From a bacterium (lineage in GTDB: Bacteria > Zhuqueibacterota > Zhuqueibacteria > Zhuqueibacterales > Zhuqueibacteraceae), in NCBI GenBank assembly GCA_044869275.1, contig JBIOXB010000036.1:25621-89620 (forward strand): 64,000 bases of DNA, written 5' to 3'. Both the position numbers and the translations under genes were made by a program. Shown here piece by piece: positions 50,241 through 61,321 of this stretch (positions are counted from its first letter, which is position 1; each line of letters opens with the position of its first letter). The notes under the pieces were generated by a model. That model was not told the origin of the DNA, ran no database searches, and worked only from the letters and a program-made list of their open reading frames with translations.

Positions 50241-52220
50241 TTATGTCAAGCTATTTTCGCTCGTGGGCGCATCGACAATTTCCACCAGCGCCGCGCCGGT
50301 GTGAGCGATGCGTACGGGCACTTCGTATGCGGCTTGCCGTATCAAGCACAGGCCGCGTTGTTTCTCGCAATAATAATACAGCAATTCGAGCCGGAACGCG
50401 GACTCCGCCGCCTGGGAGTGCACACGCAAAGGCACGGTGATTTCGGTTCCGGGTGACGCCAGCGTGAGCGCAGCGGAGGGAAAAACCAGCGCGTCATTAA
50501 GGCTGCGCATCATGAGCTGCACGGGCGAACCTTCATTCAATTCCGCTTCCTCAGGCAAGAGTATTTTCACATGAATCTCCGCCGCGCCCGGGGCCAACAC
50601 TCGCGCCGGCAATTTCGTCACGGGCGTATGTTTCGATACCAAGCGCTCGAGGCTGGGCAACGCTTGCGGCTTGAGGCGCAACGTGCCGGTCTCCTGGCTG
50701 GGCAGATCGACCACGCGAATGGCGTGATTGTTGGCGTCTGCCACATACATTTTTCCATTGAGAACGGCCAGACCCGACGGTTCGGAGAAACGCGAGGAGA
50801 GTCCATCGACGTGCCCGGTTTTGCCCTCGCCGAGCAGCGTCTTGCAGGTGCGCAGATTGGGATCAATAACTTTGATTTTGTGGTTGTAGGTATCGGCGAG
50901 ATAAAGCCTGCCCTCCTGAAACAACACGCCCAGAGGGTGCTGCAAGCGCACGCTGTCCGCCGTGCCATCCTGATCGCCGTATTGAAACAAATCGCCGCCC
51001 ACGAGTGTGCTCACGCGGTCGCTGCGCATGTCGATTTGACGCACGCTGGAGATCTCGCTGTCCGCGATGAATAAGCGCGTCAACTGCCCGCCGATGACTT
51101 CGCCGGTGATGCCGCTGGGCTGCGCGAACGCGGCTTGCATGCGCTCACCGTCACGCCGCGCTTCGTGGCCCGTGCCGGCGAAAGGCTCGATGCGATTCGT
51201 TTTCAAATCAATCGACCAGATTTGATGCGGGCCGGCCATGGCGATATAACCCGTGTGCCCGTGAATGAAGATATCCCACGGCGAATTCAACGGTATTTTC
51301 AAGCCAGACCCCCCGCGCTGCACATAACTGCCTTGCTCGCCCGTGCCTGCAATCGTCGTCACGCTGCGTGCAGCCAAATCCACGCGGCGCAAGAGGTGGT
51401 TTTCCGTATCGCAAACGATCAAATCGTCGCCATGAAAAGCCATGCCCTGCGGGCGGTTAAAGTGTGCGGTTTCAAAATCGCCGTCGTCGCGTCCGGGCAC
51501 ACCGGCACCGATGATTTCTTTTAACGTACCATCGGGCGTGCACACCAGCAAACGATCGTGATTGGAATCGGCTATGGCGAGCCGTTTATGCTTGAGATCG
51601 GCGGTAATTTTACCGGGGAAGCGCAGAAACGAATCGGGCAAATCCGGCGTTTCGAGCCGGGTGGAGAGCGGGGTGTGGTCCAGTTTATGCTCTTGCGCGA
51701 AGATCGCCAAGGCTGCTTCGACATAATGATCGATGATTTCGCGATTGCCTTCGCCGGAAAACACACCGAGCAGATAACCTTCGGCGTCGATCAATATCAG
51801 GGTCGGCCAGGCACGCACGGTATAAGACTGCCAAATGGCAAATTCGGAATCAACCACCACGGGATGTTCCACCGCCAAGCGCAGCACCGCCTGGCGGATG
51901 CTTTGCGTTTCTTTTTCATGCGTAAATTTGGCGGAATGCACACCGATCACCACGAAGGGCTGGCTCGCGTATTTTTTTTCGAGATACTTCAGGTCTGGCA
52001 CGACGTGCATGCAATTGATGCAGCAAGACGTCCAAAAATCGAGCAACACCATTTTGCCGCGCAACTCCGCCAACTGCACCGGCCGTGGCGTGTTCAGCCA
52101 ATCCAAGCCTTCAGGAAAAGCCGGCGCTTTGATCTTATGCTTGGTGCGCACTTCGCGGATTTTTTCCTGAATCTGATTCTTCAGCGACAAGCGGTCCGCA
52201 TCTGTTCTAATCGGTGTCAT
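50241..52220 (-). CDS. thioredoxin-like + NHL-repeat protein (NHLRC2/SOQ1-like)
   Basis: DFWTSCCINCMH, GVHSAKF, AWPT, repeated IADSNH/DTENH/ADTYNH NHL units. Confidence 0.92.
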   Translation of the reverse strand: MTPIRTDADRLSLKNQIQEKIREVRTKHKIKAPAFPEGLDWLNTPRPVQLAELRGKMVLLDFWTSCCINCMHVVPDLKYLEKKYASQPFVVIGVHSAKFTHEKETQSIRQAVLRLAVEHPVVVDSEFAIWQSYTVRAWPTLILIDAEGYLLGVFSGEGNREIIDHYVEAALAIFAQEHKLDHTPLSTRLETPDLPDSFLRFPGKITADLKHKRLAIADSNHDRLLVCTPDGTLKEIIGAGVPGRDDGDFETAHFNRPQGMAFHGDDLIVCDTENHLLRRVDLAARSVTTIAGTGEQGSYVQRGGSGLKIPLNSPWDIFIHGHTGYIAMAGPHQIWSIDLKTNRIEPFAGTGHEARRDGERMQAAFAQPSGITGEVIGGQLTRLFIADSEISSVRQIDMRSDRVSTLVGGDLFQYGDQDGTADSVRLQHPLGVLFQEGRLYLADTYNHKIKVIDPNLRTCKTLLGEGKTGHVDGLSSRFSEPSGLAVLNGKMYVADANNHAIRVVDLPSQETGTLRLKPQALPSLERLVSKHTPVTKLPARVLAPGAAEIHVKILLPEEAELNEGSPVQLMMRSLNDALVFPSAALTLASPGTEITVPLRVHSQAAESAFRLELLYYYCEKQRGLCLIRQAAYEVPVRIAHTGAALVEIVDAPTSENSLT

Positions 52221-54311: not shown

Positions 54312-55673
54312 TCATGCCTGCAAGCGCTGCTCAATCATCTGCTCCGCCTTATTCCAATCCAATTCCTCCAAACTGGAAATGGCACGGCACAGTTCCTCCA
54401 GAATTCCATCCTGAATCGTGCCTTTCTCCAGCGCAAGCGCATAGGGCAGGCGATGGAACGTCACCATCGCGTACTTCGGAATGAATATATCCGGGAATTT
54501 TTGCTGCAAGGCTTGTTCGACTTTTTTCTTCAACAGAAACTGCGGATCAGCGACGCGGTCGCGCATCTCGATGAAATTTTCCAAAGCCAAATCAGCAATG
54601 GCATCGGTGTTTCTTTTGCGCAAACTTTCGAACCTGCAGAAAGCTTCTTCCCAATCGCCGTCGAAATCGTCCAAAACCGCATTCAATACCGTACAATCTT
54701 CGAACGCGCAGTTTACGCCTTGTCCGAAGAACGGCACGATCGCGTGCGCGGCATCGCCGAGCAGCAGGGCTTTGCCGTCTAAGTACCAGGGCTCGCAACG
54801 AACGGTCATCATCGCACCCGTGGGATTGGCAAAGTAGCTCTCCAGCAAATTCGGCATCAGCGGCACCACGTCGGAAAATTGTTGCCGGAAAAAGTGCAGC
54901 ACTTTCTCCCCGGAATCCAGGCTCGCGAAGCTGGGCTCACCTTTGTAGGGAAAGAAGAAAATGCAGGCGAAGCTGCCATCGGTGTTGGGCAGGGCGATGA
55001 GCATGTAGGTTTTGCGCGGCCAGATGTGCAAGGCGTTTTTTTCGATCAAAAACTCTCCCGCCGCTCCGGCAGAAATCGTGAGCTCTTTATAGCCGTGCTC
55101 CAGGTACTGCTGCGAGAAATTGAAACGTCCGGCTTTCTGCATTTCCGCACGAATGGCAGAGGCCGAGCCGTCCGTGCCGATCACGACCTCGGTTGCGATC
55201 TTCGCGGTCTGCTGGCTGGTCTCATCCCATAATTCGATCTCGCCGGTATTGAAATTCATGGCCGTGCAGCGCTGGTTGAAATGGATTCTGACATTGCCAT
55301 TTCGTTCTGCCTCCGCCAGCAGCGCCTTGTTCAGCTCGCCGCGCAACACCGCGTAGATCACCTCAGAATCGTCCTTGCCGTAGCGTTGAAACGTGAGGCC
55401 GCCCTCGAGGGCGTGCATCATGCGGCCTTTCATGGGCACGGCGATTTTCATGATGGCGTCGAACAATCCCACTTGCCGCAAAGCATACAGGCCGCGCGTG
55501 GACAAGGCCAGATTGATCGAACGGCCCGCGGCGATCTCCCTGGTGCGCAGGTCCGGGCGGCGCTCGAATACTTCAACCGCGAAGCCGCGGCGCGCCAGAT
55601 AAATCGCCAGGAGCGCACCGGCCGGGCCGGCGCCGATGAGCGTGATTTTTTTAGCGGGATTCTGCGAGAGCAT
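54312..55673 (-). CDS. kmo: kynurenine 3-monooxygenase
   Basis: GAGPAG, GRSINLALSTRG, GYKEL, ALHIWPR, IALPN, GDAAHAIVPFFGQGVNCAFED. Confidence 0.95.
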   Translation of the reverse strand: MLSQNPAKKITLIGAGPAGALLAIYLARRGFAVEVFERRPDLRTREIAAGRSINLALSTRGLYALRQVGLFDAIMKIAVPMKGRMMHALEGGLTFQRYGKDDSEVIYAVLRGELNKALLAEAERNGNVRIHFNQRCTAMNFNTGEIELWDETSQQTAKIATEVVIGTDGSASAIRAEMQKAGRFNFSQQYLEHGYKELTISAGAAGEFLIEKNALHIWPRKTYMLIALPNTDGSFACIFFFPYKGEPSFASLDSGEKVLHFFRQQFSDVVPLMPNLLESYFANPTGAMMTVRCEPWYLDGKALLLGDAAHAIVPFFGQGVNCAFEDCTVLNAVLDDFDGDWEEAFCRFESLRKRNTDAIADLALENFIEMRDRVADPQFLLKKKVEQALQQKFPDIFIPKYAMVTFHRLPYALALEKGTIQDGILEELCRAISSLEELDWNKAEQMIEQRLQA

Positions 55674-56943
55674 CTTGATGCAATTGCCGAAAAACCTCCG
55701 CGAAGCGAAAAACTTCCATAAACGTGTTGTACAACGGTACAGGGGTGACGCGCAAAACGTCCGGTTCGCGCCAATCGCAAATCACATTTTGCGCGAGCAG
55801 GCGTGCACAGATTTTCTTGCCTGCTTCTGTCATTCGCAAAGAAAGCTGCGCGCCACGCTGATTCTCCTCGCGCGGCGTGATAATCTGGAAATTTGTCTGC
55901 GCCTGCAGATCGAGCAGATATTCGAGATAATTCGTGAGCAACACGCTTTTCGCGCGCAGGGTTTTCATGCCGGCGGCATCGAATATTTCCATGGATGCAC
56001 GCAATGCCGCGAGTTGCAATATCGGCGGGTTGCTCAGTTGCCAGCCCTCGGCCCCGGGAATCGGTTGAAAGTCCGGACCCATCAAAAAACGCGTGTGCTG
56101 GTCATGCCCCCACCAACCTGCCAGGCGCGGCAAGTCGCCGCGCTGCGCGTGACGTTCGTGCACGAAGCAGCCTGCGATGCTGCCCGGCCCCGCGTTCAAA
56201 TACTTGTAGGAACACCACGCTGCAAAATCGACATTCCAATCGTGAAGATGCAGCTCCAGGTTGCCCGCCGCATGCGCCAAATCAAACCCAACGATGCAGC
56301 CGTGCTCGTGTCCCAGTTGCGTGATGCGCTGCATGTCGAACGCCTGGCCGGTGGCATAATTCACGCCGCCGAGCAAAATCAACGCGAGGTGTTCGCCCTC
56401 ACGATGCAGCACCTCTTCAATATCCCCGGCGCGAATGAAAAACTCTCCCGGCCGAGGCGTTAATTCCAGCAAGCCGCGAGCGGGGTTGCAACCATGAAAG
56501 CGCAATTGGGATTTGACTGCGTATTGGTCGGAAGGAAAAGCGCCGCCTTCGATCAGGACTTTGTAGCGCTGCGGCGTGGGGCGATAGAAGGAAACCATCA
56601 AAAGATGCAAATTCACCGTGAGTGAATTCATCACCACCACTTCAATGGGCTGCGCGCCCACCAGGCGCGCGGTTGGTACGGTGAGAGATTCATGATAGGG
56701 CAGCCAGGGATTTTTCGCGTGAAAATGCCCTTCCACCCCGAGCTCGGCCCAATCTTTCAGCTCTTGCTCGACGTGCGCGCTCACCGTGCGCGGCTGCAAG
56801 CCGAGGGAGTTGCCGCAGAAATAAATGCAGTCGCAGCCGTTCTTGGCAGGTGGATAGTGGAAGCGATCACGATATTGGGCCAGCGGATCGCGCGCATCCA
56901 ACTCGCGCGCGAATGCCGGGGTGGGTTCGAAGCGATTGGACAT
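55651..56943 (-). CDS. kynU: kynureninase
   Basis: YFCGNSLGLQP, MNSLTVNLHL, FPSDQY, DLAHAAGN, WCSYKYLNAGPG, GWWGH. Confidence 0.96.
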   Translation of the reverse strand: MSNRFEPTPAFARELDARDPLAQYRDRFHYPPAKNGCDCIYFCGNSLGLQPRTVSAHVEQELKDWAELGVEGHFHAKNPWLPYHESLTVPTARLVGAQPIEVVVMNSLTVNLHLLMVSFYRPTPQRYKVLIEGGAFPSDQYAVKSQLRFHGCNPARGLLELTPRPGEFFIRAGDIEEVLHREGEHLALILLGGVNYATGQAFDMQRITQLGHEHGCIVGFDLAHAAGNLELHLHDWNVDFAAWCSYKYLNAGPGSIAGCFVHERHAQRGDLPRLAGWWGHDQHTRFLMGPDFQPIPGAEGWQLSNPPILQLAALRASMEIFDAAGMKTLRAKSVLLTNYLEYLLDLQAQTNFQIITPREENQRGAQLSLRMTEAGKKICARLLAQNVICDWREPDVLRVTPVPLYNTFMEVFRFAEVFRQLHQDALAESR

Positions 56944-56986
56944 AAGCAAAGACTTTTTCCAATTCCTCACACGCAGATCTGGCCGG

Positions 56987-58057
56987 TTAGTTTTGTATAT
57001 TTGAACGCACCGGTGGGCCCTCTTTCCTCCCCAGCCATTCCAGCGCCGTTCCCCGGAGCAAACGCGCTTTTGTCGCCTCGCTCAAATCCGGTATCGATTC
57101 GATCAGCTTACCCGGCTCTGCTTCACCCAATGGAAAGGGATAGTCCGAGCCAAGCGCTAGGGCGTTTTCACCCATGAGCTCGAGCAGGTAGCGCAGGAGG
57201 CGGGCATCGTGCACCAGCGCATCGAGATAAAATTTGCCCAAGTATGTTTTCGGGTGCACGGGATTGTCAAGCGCGCACAAATCGGGGCGCGCTTCGAAGC
57301 CGTGCGCGATGCGGCCGATGGTCCCGGGAAAGGAGCCGCCGCCATGTGCGAAGGCCACGCGCAATTTCGGCAAGCGTTCGAACAAGCCGCCGAAGACCAT
57401 GCTGCAAATCGCCAGGCAGGTTTCCGCGGGCATGCCGACGAGCCACGGCAGCCAGTATTTCTTCATTCTTTCCTGCCCGAGCACGTCCCAAGGATGCACG
57501 AAGATCGCCGCGCCCAACTGTTCCGCTGCCTGAAAAAACGGAAAAAGATGTGAATCATCCAGATTCCATTCATTCACATGCGAGCCGATCTGGACGCCGG
57601 CCAAGCCGAGCTCTTTGACGCAGCGTTCGAGCTCCTGAACCGCCAAATCCGGCGCCTGCAAGGGCACGGTGCCCAGGCCCGCGAAGCGCGCGGGAAATTC
57701 TGCGATTACCCCGGCGATGTGATCGTTGAGAAAGCGTGACAGATCGAGCCCATCTTCCGGCTTTGCCCAGTACGCGAACATGACCGGCACGGTGGAGAGC
57801 ACCTGCAGCGCCACACCGCAACGATCACAATCGGCCAGGCGCGCGCCCGGCGACCAGGCGTTCTCTTCGATTTCCCGAAACAGCCGGCTGTCGATCATCA
57901 TGCGCGCGCAGCCCGGTGCATGATGCTCGAGCCGTACGAAACCGCCATAGCCGTACTTCTTTTTCCAGTCCGGCCAGGCAGGCGGCAGGATATGCGTGTG
58001 AATATCGATTTTGCCGATGAACGAGGCAGAGCGATCGGAGTGTGAAGGGGAATTCAT
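56987..58057 (-). CDS. 2-amino-3-carboxymuconate-6-semialdehyde decarboxylase (ACMSD, amidohydrolase family)
   Basis: DIHTHILP, LSTVPVMF, FVHPWD, WLVGMPAET, AHGGGSF, GSDYPFPLGE. Adjacent to kynU and kmo. Confidence 0.9.
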   Translation of the reverse strand: MNSPSHSDRSASFIGKIDIHTHILPPAWPDWKKKYGYGGFVRLEHHAPGCARMMIDSRLFREIEENAWSPGARLADCDRCGVALQVLSTVPVMFAYWAKPEDGLDLSRFLNDHIAGVIAEFPARFAGLGTVPLQAPDLAVQELERCVKELGLAGVQIGSHVNEWNLDDSHLFPFFQAAEQLGAAIFVHPWDVLGQERMKKYWLPWLVGMPAETCLAICSMVFGGLFERLPKLRVAFAHGGGSFPGTIGRIAHGFEARPDLCALDNPVHPKTYLGKFYLDALVHDARLLRYLLELMGENALALGSDYPFPLGEAEPGKLIESIPDLSEATKARLLRGTALEWLGRKEGPPVRSNIQN

Positions 58058-58102
58058 ACTTGTTTCTGAAGCCGGGCCACCACAGTCAGGGCACGCGGCC
58101 AT

Positions 58103-58708: not shown

Positions 58709-59836
58709 TCATTGCAACGGCGTTTCCCGGCGAATTTTGTCGATCGCCTTTTGTGCCTCCAGGCGCACGGCTTCAACGGGGTCATCCATGGCGCGGTACA
58801 AGCTCGGCAGCCCGCGCATGTCGCCGAGGTTGCCCAGCGCTTCCGCCGCCTGCTGCCTTAGCCGGGGATTGTCATGATCGACCGCCGCGGCCACGAGATG
58901 GACGGTTTGTGGCGCGCCAATATAACCCAACGTGGTGATCGCCAAGCCGCGCAGGAAAACATCATTCGAGGAAACGTTTGCAAAGGCAGCACGATAACCG
59001 CTGTCATTGCCAAGTACAGCCAGAATCAATGCAGCCAGCAATTGAGTCGTGAAAGGCGCCGTGGGCCGGTTCAAGATCTGTTCCAGCTTGGGCAGCAATT
59101 CCCTGCGAAGATTTGCTTGCAGTCCTGCAATTTGCGCCAGCGAAAACCCGGCGCTCTCCCGCACTTCCGCCGCTTCGGTCGAGTCCACGACCAGATCGAA
59201 TAACGTGATCGTCACCGCAGGCTGCGGAAAAACAGACAGGGCACGGCAGGCTGATGCGCGTATTGTCGCCTCTCCTGCGCGGGCTTTGGCGAGAAGGGGT
59301 TTGACGGCGCGCTCATCCCGAAGCTTGGCCAGCACCTGGGCAACGGCCTGTTGCACGGCGGGATGGGGGTCCTCTTCAAGAATGTCGATGATCGGCCTTA
59401 CCTCTTCTGCCGTGGCGATTTCGCCGAGCAACTGCACCATGCGCTCGCGCATGTAAGGATCGCTGTCGTCTTGGATTTCGCCGGGCAGCACCGTACGCAT
59501 GGATGCCGCATTGCGCAGGATGCTTTCATGCATGGCTTGCGCGCGCGGATTGCCGGCGCGTAAATAACAGCGCCACAGCAGCAACGTGCCGTGCGGGTCG
59601 TCGTGATTGCGGGCTAAAAAATTTTCCAACAATTGGATCGCCTGGCTGATCGGCTCGGAATACCCCTGCTGCGCCGCTTGGCCGTTGCGGGACTGATCGT
59701 ACAAAACTGCAGCCCGGTCATAGTCAGTATCACCGCACGCGGCTGCGAGCAGTGCCAGCCCGCACCACAGCCCCCGCAGCCCCGCGCGGAAAGGGTGATT
59801 GCTTTTTTCAAAAAGCTTATGTATGATAAAGTGCAT
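58709..59836 (-). CDS. HEAT-repeat lipoprotein
   Basis: Lipobox LAAA-C. Repeated D-x-VR-x-AA-x-ALG helical units. Confidence 0.85.
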   Translation of the reverse strand: MHFIIHKLFEKSNHPFRAGLRGLWCGLALLAAACGDTDYDRAAVLYDQSRNGQAAQQGYSEPISQAIQLLENFLARNHDDPHGTLLLWRCYLRAGNPRAQAMHESILRNAASMRTVLPGEIQDDSDPYMRERMVQLLGEIATAEEVRPIIDILEEDPHPAVQQAVAQVLAKLRDERAVKPLLAKARAGEATIRASACRALSVFPQPAVTITLFDLVVDSTEAAEVRESAGFSLAQIAGLQANLRRELLPKLEQILNRPTAPFTTQLLAALILAVLGNDSGYRAAFANVSSNDVFLRGLAITTLGYIGAPQTVHLVAAAVDHDNPRLRQQAAEALGNLGDMRGLPSLYRAMDDPVEAVRLEAQKAIDKIRRETPLQ

Positions 59837-60004
59837 GAGTGGATTTTTGGGAGCTCGATTCGCCAGTGGCTTACGAAGGCGATGCTGGGTGTTTAAAAAC
59901 GTTAATATAGAGCAGCCGCCCTAGAGAAGCAAGCGAAAATCCCTGCATAATCAACCGCCGCGCGGTTTCGCGCGTCTGATTCTTCATCATGTTATGCGAG
60001 GTGT

Positions 60005-61321
60005 ATGATGCACAAACACCGGCTGGCCCGGGCATGGCTCGGCGTCGTGCTTGCCAGTCTCTGCGGGCAGGCAGAAGTCCCGCTGCACGCGAACGATAAG
60101 ATGACCTTGCACTTGGTTTACACCAGCGACACGATCGGCTACGTCGACCCCTGTGGCTGAAGCGGCAGCAGGCGTGGCGGACTGGCCAAGCGCGCAACCA
60201 TGATTGACAGTTTGCGGGCGAAACATCCCGATCTCGTTCTCATCGACGGCGGTAATTTCGGCGAAACACCGGCCGGGCCGTCGACGTGGAAAACCTACGA
60301 GCAGCTCAAGCTGCTGCATAAAATGGGCTACGATGCCGTAGCGCTCGGACAAAATGATCTCTGTCCGGCCCTGGCGGACTCCGCGGCGAAGTGGCACTGC
60401 CGCGATTTCTTGTTCAGCGGCTTGCATGCCACCAAAGCGAAGGCGGATTATCCGGCCGCCAAAATCATTACGAAATCCAATTATAAGCTCGGCGTCGTGA
60501 ATGTGGCCTCGGCGCAATTCAATCGTTTGGAAGATAACACCTCGACTTACGACGCTGAAAAATTTCTGCGGGAGCAATTGAGCAGCCTCCAAAACCAGGC
60601 GGATTTTTGGGCGGTGGTGTATCTCGGGCCGCCGCACGAGCTCGTGGCGTTGAGCAAGAAATTCCCTGAAGTGGATTTGTGGCTGCAGGCGAGCGGCAAT
60701 CATCGACCGCTCAATTTGATTGAATCCTCGAATAATACTTTGATCGTCAGCGCCGGCGACCGAGGCCGCGAAATTGCGTTCATTACCATCGAGAAGGAGA
60801 AAGGCGGCAGCCGCGTCGCGGCGAGTTTTAATCAAATCATTTTGACCGATCGCATTGTCGATTCGCCCCAAGCCAAGCCCTGGATTGAGAGCTATCGCAA
60901 TGCCGGTCAGCGCGGGGTCGCACCTCCGCAAAAAGTCGGTGAAGTGAAAGGGTTGAATCCTTATCTCGGCAGCGCCGCGTGCCAATCGTGCCACCAGGAG
61001 ATTTTTCAGCGCTGGGAAAAAACGGCGCACGGGCATGCTTTTGCCACGCTCGCCGCAAAACGCGAAGACCGGAATACGGCTTGTCTGGAATGCCATACCA
61101 CTGGTTATCGCGAAGAGACCGGATATGCCGCCACCACGGCCACAGCCCACCTCGTACAGGTGGGCTGTGAATCCTGCCACGGTCGCGGCGGCTTTCACGT
61201 GCGCATGAACGGACGCATTGCCAATTTCATGGAGATTTCCGAAGCCGCTTGCCTACGCTGCCACGACGCGAAGAATTCTCCCAGTTTTGCCTTCGCGGCA
61301 GCGGTCAAAATCGTTCATTGA
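60005..61321 (+). CDS. probable selenoprotein: exported UshA-like (metallophosphoesterase-fold) domain with Cys-Gly-Sec, fused to a tetraheme cytochrome c
   Basis: GAGGTG RBS, ATG 60005, signal peptide, LHLVYTSDTIGYVDPCG-TGA(60158-60160)-SGSRRGGLAKRATMID, in frame with the 60200 ORF. Four CxxCH: CQSCH, CLECH, CESCH, CLRCH. Confidence 0.85.
60161..60195 (+). promoter_or_regulatory. candidate bacterial SECIS element
   Basis: Hairpin GCG-TGGC / loop GGACTG / GCCA-AG-CGC. The loop starts with G at 60179, 18 nt after the UGA. Confidence 0.6.

Follow-up and report, generated by a model that had tools for sequence, protein, structure and literature searches.

A predicted selenoprotein gene hidden behind a shortened gene model in a Zhuqueibacterota bacterium joins a UshA-like Cys-x-Sec domain to a tetraheme cytochrome domain

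The DNA analyzed here, referred to below as the window, is a stretch of 64,000 nucleotides from a bacterial genome assembly of the family Zhuqueibacteraceae. Standard gene calling places an open reading frame (ORF) of 373 amino acids at 60200 of the window. The initial annotation had proposed that this ORF is the rear part of a longer selenoprotein gene, read through one in-frame TGA. The features of the locus are the following.

58709..59836, minus strand: HEAT-repeat gene with a lipobox-like L-A-A-A-C (Pfam HEAT_2), divergent from the selenoprotein gene
59998..60003, plus strand: Shine-Dalgarno-like GAGGTG just 5' of the tandem ATGs 60005/60008 (sequence)
60005..61321, plus strand: full read-through gene, 438 aa with one Sec and a true TGA stop (translation, relatives)
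60005..60091, plus strand: predicted signal peptide, about residues 1-29 (hydropathy, similar leaders in relatives; cleavage site placed by eye)
60095..60913, plus strand: UshA/5'-nucleotidase N-terminal (metallophosphoesterase) fold, dimetal ligands lost, ending in a long linker helix (AlphaFold model, structure search, ligand tally)
60152..60160, plus strand: Cys50-Gly51-Sec52 motif, with the Sec codon TGA at 60158-60160
60168..60195, plus strand: bacterial SECIS hairpin, upper stem 60175-60178 paired with 60185-60188 (fold, constraint, pairing, Sec versus Cys control)
60200..61321, plus strand: shortened 373-aa ORF of standard pipelines (ORF calling; database entry P0002)
60956..61318, plus strand: c554-like tetraheme domain (PF13435, 1bvb, conservation)
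60980-60994, 61082-61096, 61166-61180 and 61250-61264, plus strand: CxxCH motifs (sequence)

The frame 60005-61321 translates into 438 codons with exactly one internal stop, a TGA at codon 52 (60158-60160) in the context D-P-C-G-stop-S-G-S-R-R-G-G; the terminal stop of the gene, at 61319-61321, is a TGA too. The leader consists of a basic start and a hydrophobic core whose 11-residue Kyte-Doolittle mean reaches 1.96, against a maximum of only 0.67 in the first 35 residues of the 373-aa ORF, the export signal being judged from this hydropathy profile and not by a dedicated signal-peptide predictor. In the AlphaFold model, residues 3-11 (model numbering) form the first strand, which is encoded 5' of the TGA. 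Hydropathy and model therefore bear out the claim that the called ORF lacks both an export signal and the first strand, and the ribosome binding site, ATG, leader and 438-aa frame predicted upstream are all present. Four CxxCH motifs start at residues 326, 360, 388 and 416, within the last 113 residues and, with the leader, they support the proposal of one protein, probably exported, with a tetraheme C-terminal domain. As also anticipated, standard pipelines shorten the gene: the best 28 of 28 database matches, its own entry included, are devoid of the CxU segment.

Upstream, the divergent HEAT-repeat gene, which encodes a probable lipoprotein, is kept in all seven family-level loci examined. 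Promoter-like sites such as 59922-59951 are not above chance (two found for 0.7 +/- 0.9 expected) and no terminator-like site was found 3' of the selenoprotein gene, which looks monocistronic. Farther away in the window, a minus-strand cluster at 54312-58102 encodes an amidohydrolase, a kynureninase and an FAD monooxygenase by Pfam, a set that fits tryptophan breakdown by the kynurenine pathway. A 659-aa protein combining thioredoxin-like and NHL-repeat regions is encoded at 50241-52220 (minus strand), about 8 kb from the selenoprotein gene.

The conservation of codon 52 was assessed by a read-through search of 61 genomes, the source and 60 relatives, in which the nature of the codon was not presupposed. 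Strong homologs were recovered in 17 of 18 same-family genomes, the only miss being a genome 59% complete. The motif is present in 57 of 59 relative loci, the two others being a frame without the motif and a C-terminal fragment. Among 48 distinct frames, including the studied gene, 47 carry TGA and one carries TGC in the same column, with conservation on both sides, in agreement with the expected alternation between TGA and Cys. A pattern scan of GTDB returned at least 120 loci; its DNA pattern detects only members with a five-residue spacer and admitted only TGA, TGC or TGT, whereas the searches of the 61 genomes were unrestricted. Among the GTDB loci listed, 117 were confirmed by profile and three were dropped, leaving 84 TGA and 33 Cys genes; according to the record titles, these loci belong to Myxococcota, Acidobacteriota, Planctomycetota, Eisenbacteria, Krumholzibacteriota, Calditrichota and other phyla. 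The closest named database homologs carry the label candidate division KSB1. Another sample of the same study yielded a contig with zero differences to the source across the TGA. Contigs from two other studies cover the codon too and show no change at 60158-60160 among the differences listed, a list that leaves out seven; this cross-check was made on assembled contigs and not on raw reads. The TGA is neither an assembly error nor a chance occurrence.

The hairpin at 60168-60195 (-12.8 kcal/mol) has a loop of 6 nt whose first base is G, at a distance of 18 nt from the UGA, and agrees with the bSECIS model, which specifies a loop of 3-9 nt with G within its initial two positions, 16-37 nt past the UGA, and a minimum free energy of at most -7.5 kcal/mol (PMC13188914). 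This model is unspecific on its own: 911 of 3184 candidate TGAs pass it in a genome-wide scan, a search for further selenoproteins that was rejected for this reason. The hairpin is not more stable than shuffled sequences either (z 0.02 to 2.24). Its specificity comes instead from synonymous constraint and from the contrast between Sec and Cys genes. In 17 family sequences, synonymous identity over codons 53-64 is 0.86, compared with 0.53 +/- 0.08 (maximum 0.72) in 372 other windows; the excess is weaker over all 44 TGA sequences (0.54 versus 0.44 +/- 0.05, maximum 0.62). Three core pairs are kept in 33 of 33 aligned sequences, with wobble changes only. No two-sided compensatory change occurs in any hairpin pair of this alignment, and a pair-shuffle control is uninformative because only G-U wobble changes occur. 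Among the GTDB loci listed, the Ala codon closing the stem, whose third base is free, has a pyrimidine there in 81 of 84 Sec genes and in 15 of 33 Cys genes, and the stem is intact in 71 of 84 and 12 of 33, respectively (Fisher p 1e-9 and 7e-7, both overstated as kin are not independent). On this comparison, the hairpin pairs are maintained in Sec genes and not in Cys genes.

Three observations had been named beforehand as speaking against selenocysteine: homologs with Trp or another non-Cys residue at this position, a TGC or TGT in other reads of the locus, and a genome without Sec machinery. The homologs and contigs supplied neither of the first two. The third received a mixed answer: selA and selB score over their cut-offs and tRNA-Sec is present in the source assembly, and selD is not over its cut-off in this assembly, which is 94.4% complete. 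It is over the cut-off in 54 of the 61 genomes, including a same-genus genome whose selD is itself TGA-containing (Sec-type). None of the genes in the 9.3-kb selD block of that genome has an ortholog in the source assembly, where even the best match stays below 30% identity; in the block around the studied gene, DNA identity between the two is 76-78%. The missing selD is probably a gap in the 94%-complete assembly, which is the simplest reading. PurC, encoded beside selD in the same-genus genome, likewise has no ortholog in the source assembly; as an argument for the gap it is weak, since a divergent PurC-like gene, below the family cut-off, exists there (G000:C139:10569-11180, minus strand). 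No Sec-type formate dehydrogenase was found over cut-off in the source assembly.

Conservation, SECIS constraint and the presence of selA, selB and tRNA-Sec together support the reading of codon 52 as selenocysteine, which is almost certainly right. The contrary reading, which takes the TGA for a genuine stop, a Trp codon or an error and leaves the 373-aa ORF or a pseudogene, could invoke the selD not found in the source assembly. It has to face a TGA whose conservation extends over the class and other phyla and whose only alternative is Cys, the constraint on the SECIS region, a TGA as the gene's own terminator, an ATG at 60200, the start of the called ORF, that is not conserved in relatives, and the Sec-type selD of the same-genus genome within a block for which the source assembly has no ortholog. 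We consider it extremely unlikely. The gene-model repair is correct and the gene almost certainly encodes a real hidden selenoprotein.

The best model match of the protein, with U read as C, is NCBIfam NF041198 (UshA_like_PCGU, 'UshA-like (seleno)protein'), with E 1e-64 and 218.9 bits, below the cut-off of 275. This model of 519 positions is matched at 15-272 and 394-518, in both the UshA-like and the cytochrome parts, the latter segment aligning to residues 309-430. The cut-off is passed by six of the 61 genomes, each only with both domains summed, and by three of 14 tested homologs; the six relatives above it all have TGA and four CxxCH. Since NF041198 spans the cytochrome segment and the relatives that pass it combine TGA with four CxxCH, the fusion is already part of the published model, and the word 'undescribed' in the initial annotation is not supported. 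Its statement that UshA-like CxU/CxC proteins are a described, functionally uncharacterised group agrees with NF041198 and with the Global Ocean Sampling (GOS) listing (PMC2398784). That survey counted 76 Sec and 92 Cys sequences in the family 'COG0737, UshA-like, CxU', which in 2008 belonged to the 20 major families of marine selenoproteins (Zhang and Gladyshev; PMC2398784), and the sequences seen in its supplement show the same CxU motif as the studied protein. In a 2026 review, the UshA-like CxU family is listed as predicted, not verified (PMC13188914). The literature searched yielded no paper on the heme domain or the function of the family.

The studied protein shares with NF041198 and the COG0737 CxU family a P-C-G-U followed by G-G-L, a signal peptide, a UshA-like domain and a C-terminal cytochrome, and differs from NF041198 by its score below the cut-off, its divergent clade and even fewer metal ligands (1/7). 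By the broad COG0737 definition it has the CxU after the first strand of a UshA-like domain predicted to be exported. It belongs to the known UshA-like CxU family, as a divergent relative of NF041198 that scores below the cut-off. A search at E <= 1e-30 returned 5804 cluster representatives, partial and cytochrome-only matches included, and a query of the ESM Atlas with a Cys homolog gave only clusters of the same architecture with automatic names.

The AlphaFold model has a mean pLDDT of 81, with values of about 90 or more over most of the N-terminal domain, below 50 in the linker and 42-82 in the heme domain. Its closest structures are the 5'-nucleotidases 3ivd (Z 27.6) and 1ush (Z 25.4) and SoxB 2wdc (Z 24.6), matches that all come from the N-terminal domain and do not concern the fold of the heme domain. 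Of seven positions that we take, His117 apart, to be the canonical nucleotidase ligand and catalytic positions, the studied protein keeps one, D42. Across 221 family sequences, GNH[D/E] occurs in none, its Asn in one and the catalytic His in four, no sequence retains more than four of the seven positions, and retention is partial for D42 (93), D84 (91), H207 (114) and H232 (79). This catalytic residue, His117, is described as essential in UshA and CpdB (PMC7922932). The 221 sequences had been selected for CxC, which makes the motif invariant among them by construction. The best 149 representatives were taken without this selection: 131 of them extend over the region, of which 128 match the motif pattern and two more show CxC, and the other 18 begin past the motif, as expected for shortened Sec genes. 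The domain, as judged from these alignments, retains the 5'-nucleotidase fold, and its metal ligands and catalytic His are gone.

UshA, CpdB and CD73 share the N-terminal fold and the linker helix with the studied protein (Z 25-28). The latter lacks their dimetal ligands and His117 and carries an added CxU loop; it has no Pfam match to the C-terminal nucleotide-binding domain of UshA/CpdB, and a tetraheme cytochrome domain replaces this substrate domain. SoxB thiosulfohydrolase is likewise periplasmic and has the same fold. It needs a dimetal site, which is lost in the studied protein, and the SoxB model TIGR04486 is not among the matches of the latter at E <= 0.01.

The C-terminal domain matches PF13435 with 58.7 bits (cut-off 20.8) and cytochrome c554 (1bvb) with E 1.6e-8, hemes 1-3 being aligned. 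Three further conserved histidines, His342, His398 and His438, occur together in 159 of 177 four-heme sequences, and these sequences hold no conserved Met in the heme domain. Cytochrome c554 has one five-coordinate heme. In the studied domain there are seven His ligands for eight sites and therefore one five-coordinate, or open, heme is predicted from the His count. A conserved S-P-x-F motif near the C-terminus may be, on our assumption, the c554 loop shielding the open heme; the alignment to c554 stops short of this motif. Three cytochrome c assembly genes are over cut-off in the source genome. Nitrosomonas c554 (CycA) is also of the PF13435 type, with four CxxCH and three extra His; the studied domain is shorter, is fused to the CxU domain, shows no hao context, and scores 49.5 bits against a cut-off of 400 with the CycA equivalog NF043010. 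MccSep/ExtKL is described as a periplasmic protein that, like the studied one, holds c-type hemes and one Sec in one chain, with five hemes and the Sec inside the cytochrome beside a Cys-ligated heme (PMC13510729). The studied protein differs in having four hemes and its Sec in a separate phosphoesterase-fold domain; it has four CxxCH, not five, and scores 26.9 bits with the MccSep/ExtKL model NF040886 (cut-off 250). A stand-alone c554-like cytochrome is encoded elsewhere in the source genome (G000:C117:14945-15364, plus strand, open frame of 215 aa); relatives have comparable cytochromes, which could serve heme-less forms.

Such forms are frequent. In a tree of 115 N-terminal domains, obtained by a quick IQ-TREE search and including several long branches, the heme domain is present in 71 members and absent from 44, and the heme label changes 14 times, at least eight of these changes being forced by well-supported branches. 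The heme domain is missing from the sister clade of the studied gene, which belongs to the same order and has an almost identical SECIS. Because the heme domain was gained or lost repeatedly on the tree, the Cys-x-Sec domain is the constant part and the hemes are optional; by this distribution, the core function does not depend on a heme wire in every member. A split form, in which a heme-less gene would be accompanied by an adjacent cytochrome gene, was rejected as a rule: a c554-like neighbor was found in two of 24 complete heme-less loci, some with short flanks. In Myxococcaceae, heme-less forms lie beside a CpoB-like gene (L088, L089, L147 and L152 versus L142 and L160); those of Myxococcus, Archangium and Corallococcus are Sec-type, and those of Pyxidicoccus Cys-type.

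The neighbors differ by lineage (LptD and HU, CpoB-like, Maf, HEAT lipoprotein, DUF1573) and no shared operon names a substrate. Among 77 loci, an LptD-like gene is found in 16 and the gene that we take to be HU in 13, and CpoB-like genes and what is presumably Maf occur in others. The order LptD-like, HU, UshA-like gene recurs in Krumholzibacteriota, Eisenbacteria and related records (L081, L087, L097, L099, L104, L107, L113, L120, L126, L136, L154 and others); it may be a relic of ancient synteny or point to a connection with envelope disulfide handling. The only link observed both as a fusion and as a neighbor is DUF1573/OS_HP2, fused in five of the 149 best representatives (P0173, P0186, P0194, P0262, P0152) and, in 10 of 77 loci, encoded just upstream of the UshA-like gene and on its strand (L086, L091, L101, L105, L110, L112, L119, L129, L144, L150), with CxC in 10 of 10. 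It is itself catalogued as a (seleno)protein family (PMC13188914). No DUF1573 gene lies beside the studied gene nor in 19 relative loci checked. DsbA-like domains are the other fusion partners: in three proteins of about 1200 aa (P0122, P0124, P0128), two UshA-like CxC domains flank a DsbA-like thioredoxin region and a tetraheme C-terminus follows, an architecture that strongly hints at a thiol-redox function of the family. In a large family comprising most of P0031-P0121 and labelled 'peroxiredoxin', two redoxin/TlpA-like domains are fused to c554-like heme modules.

Our best guess, held with modest confidence, is that the protein acts as a periplasmic thiol/selenol oxidoreductase with Cys50-x-Sec52 as its working site on a pseudo-phosphoesterase scaffold. 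SelB and tRNA-Sec almost certainly decode the UGA as selenocysteine under the direction of the adjacent hairpin, and the 438-aa precursor is very probably exported and receives four c-type hemes on its C-terminal domain. The N-terminal pseudo-phosphoesterase would present the Cys50-x-Sec52 loop, which would alternate between thiol/selenolate and selenenylsulfide while acting on envelope proteins or small oxidants, the CxC-bearing DUF1573 domain being one candidate partner. The tetraheme domain follows the same linker helix as the hinged UshA substrate domain, whose position it would occupy, and would be an optional built-in electron relay resetting the CxU, probably through the single heme predicted to be five-coordinate; in heme-less members, this role would fall to a separate redox partner. 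The C-terminal domain of UshA is reported to hinge onto the active-site face (PMC7922932), and hemes can reduce a Sec-S intermediate in the account given of MccSep (PMC13510729). By analogy, the cytochrome could swing like the UshA domain to reset the selenenylsulfide. The loss of the hydrolase site, the retention of CxC, the DsbA-like and DUF1573 fusions and the association of the heme module with tandem redoxins elsewhere argue for an oxidoreductase; the 44 heme-less members out of 115, the lineage-varying neighbors and the lack of DUF1573 near the studied gene argue against it. Myxococcaceae and Planctomycetota are largely aerobic groups, and the members they contain fit housekeeping redox more than anaerobic respiration.

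Other functions can be envisaged for the same architecture. The Sec might attack polysulfide, thiosulfate or a protein-bound persulfide, with the open heme, possibly ligated by Cys50/Sec52 on domain closure, supplying or taking electrons as in MccSep, TsdA and SoxAX on a scaffold related to SoxB. The fold shared with SoxB, the weak matches of several Cys homologs to the SoxB model (47-167 bits for a cut-off of 550), the heme site left open by the seven-His pattern, basic residues enriched near the old active site and the Sec/heme S-S cleavage described for MccSep (PMC13510729) are compatible with such a sulfur-species enzyme. We find it unlikely, as no sulfur-metabolism gene is prominent among recurrent neighbors in an untargeted tally of 77 and 20 loci, the studied protein itself does not match the SoxB model at E <= 0.01 and reaches only 26.9 bits with that of ExtKL/MccSep (cut-off 250), and many members are heme-less. 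Another reading, rather improbable, makes Cys50 and Sec52 not a redox pair but ligands of a soft metal or metalloid (Cu, Zn, Hg, As). The remodelled site would then serve chaperoning, detoxification or a new reaction dependent on the metal, which the hemes would maintain in the reduced state. Soft metals can be chelated by a CxC spacing, the motif follows the first metal-binding strand and D42, D84, H207 and H232 persist in the part of the 221 sequences given above; the studied protein retains D42 only, metal-resistance genes are not prominent among recurrent neighbors and the fusion partners are thiol-redox folds.

A non-catalytic role as redox or gas sensor or scaffold, in which the CxU state or NO/O2 at the open heme would shift the domains and signal to a partner such as the divergent HEAT-repeat lipoprotein, would suit a pseudo-enzyme fold with a flexible linker, and cytochrome c554 reportedly binds NO reversibly. 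This role is quite improbable: the HEAT neighbor, present in seven of seven family loci, is confined to the taxonomic family, and Sec is usually catalytic (PMC13188914). Finally, the protein could still be a phosphoesterase or nucleotidase with CxU as a regulatory switch, as its clear 5'-nucleotidase fold and the sequence similarity around residues 27-122 would allow; with the catalytic His, the Asn and most metal ligands lost and the nucleotide-binding domain replaced by a cytochrome, we regard this as very unlikely. Beyond the thiol/selenol oxidoreductase that we prefer, a bolder and doubtful possibility is that the family forms a second, far more widespread class of heme-coupled selenoenzymes, in which a c554-like domain, having assumed the place and the hinge motion of the substrate domain of UshA, would swing its open heme onto the Cys-x-Sec selenenylsulfide of a dead nucleotidase and so reset it.

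The discovery is modest, the family and its heme tail being already in a curated model; it consists of a gene-model fix and a lead. Standard pipelines drop both the export signal and the active site, and annotations of these bacteria consequently miss one selenoprotein. The lead concerns a large family for which the literature searched gives no tested function and of which the present clade falls below the NF041198 cut-off. The analysis narrows the tests to a protein with no hydrolase site, an optional heme relay and one predicted open heme; natural all-Cys versions can be expressed without Sec machinery and the heme-less forms of Myxococcaceae offer a culturable system. If the heme-coupled selenoenzyme reading is true, the family would link one-electron heme wires to the two-electron chemistry of thiols in the periplasm by a route that needs neither flavin nor quinone, and the CxC-bearing DUF1573 domains would be its clients.
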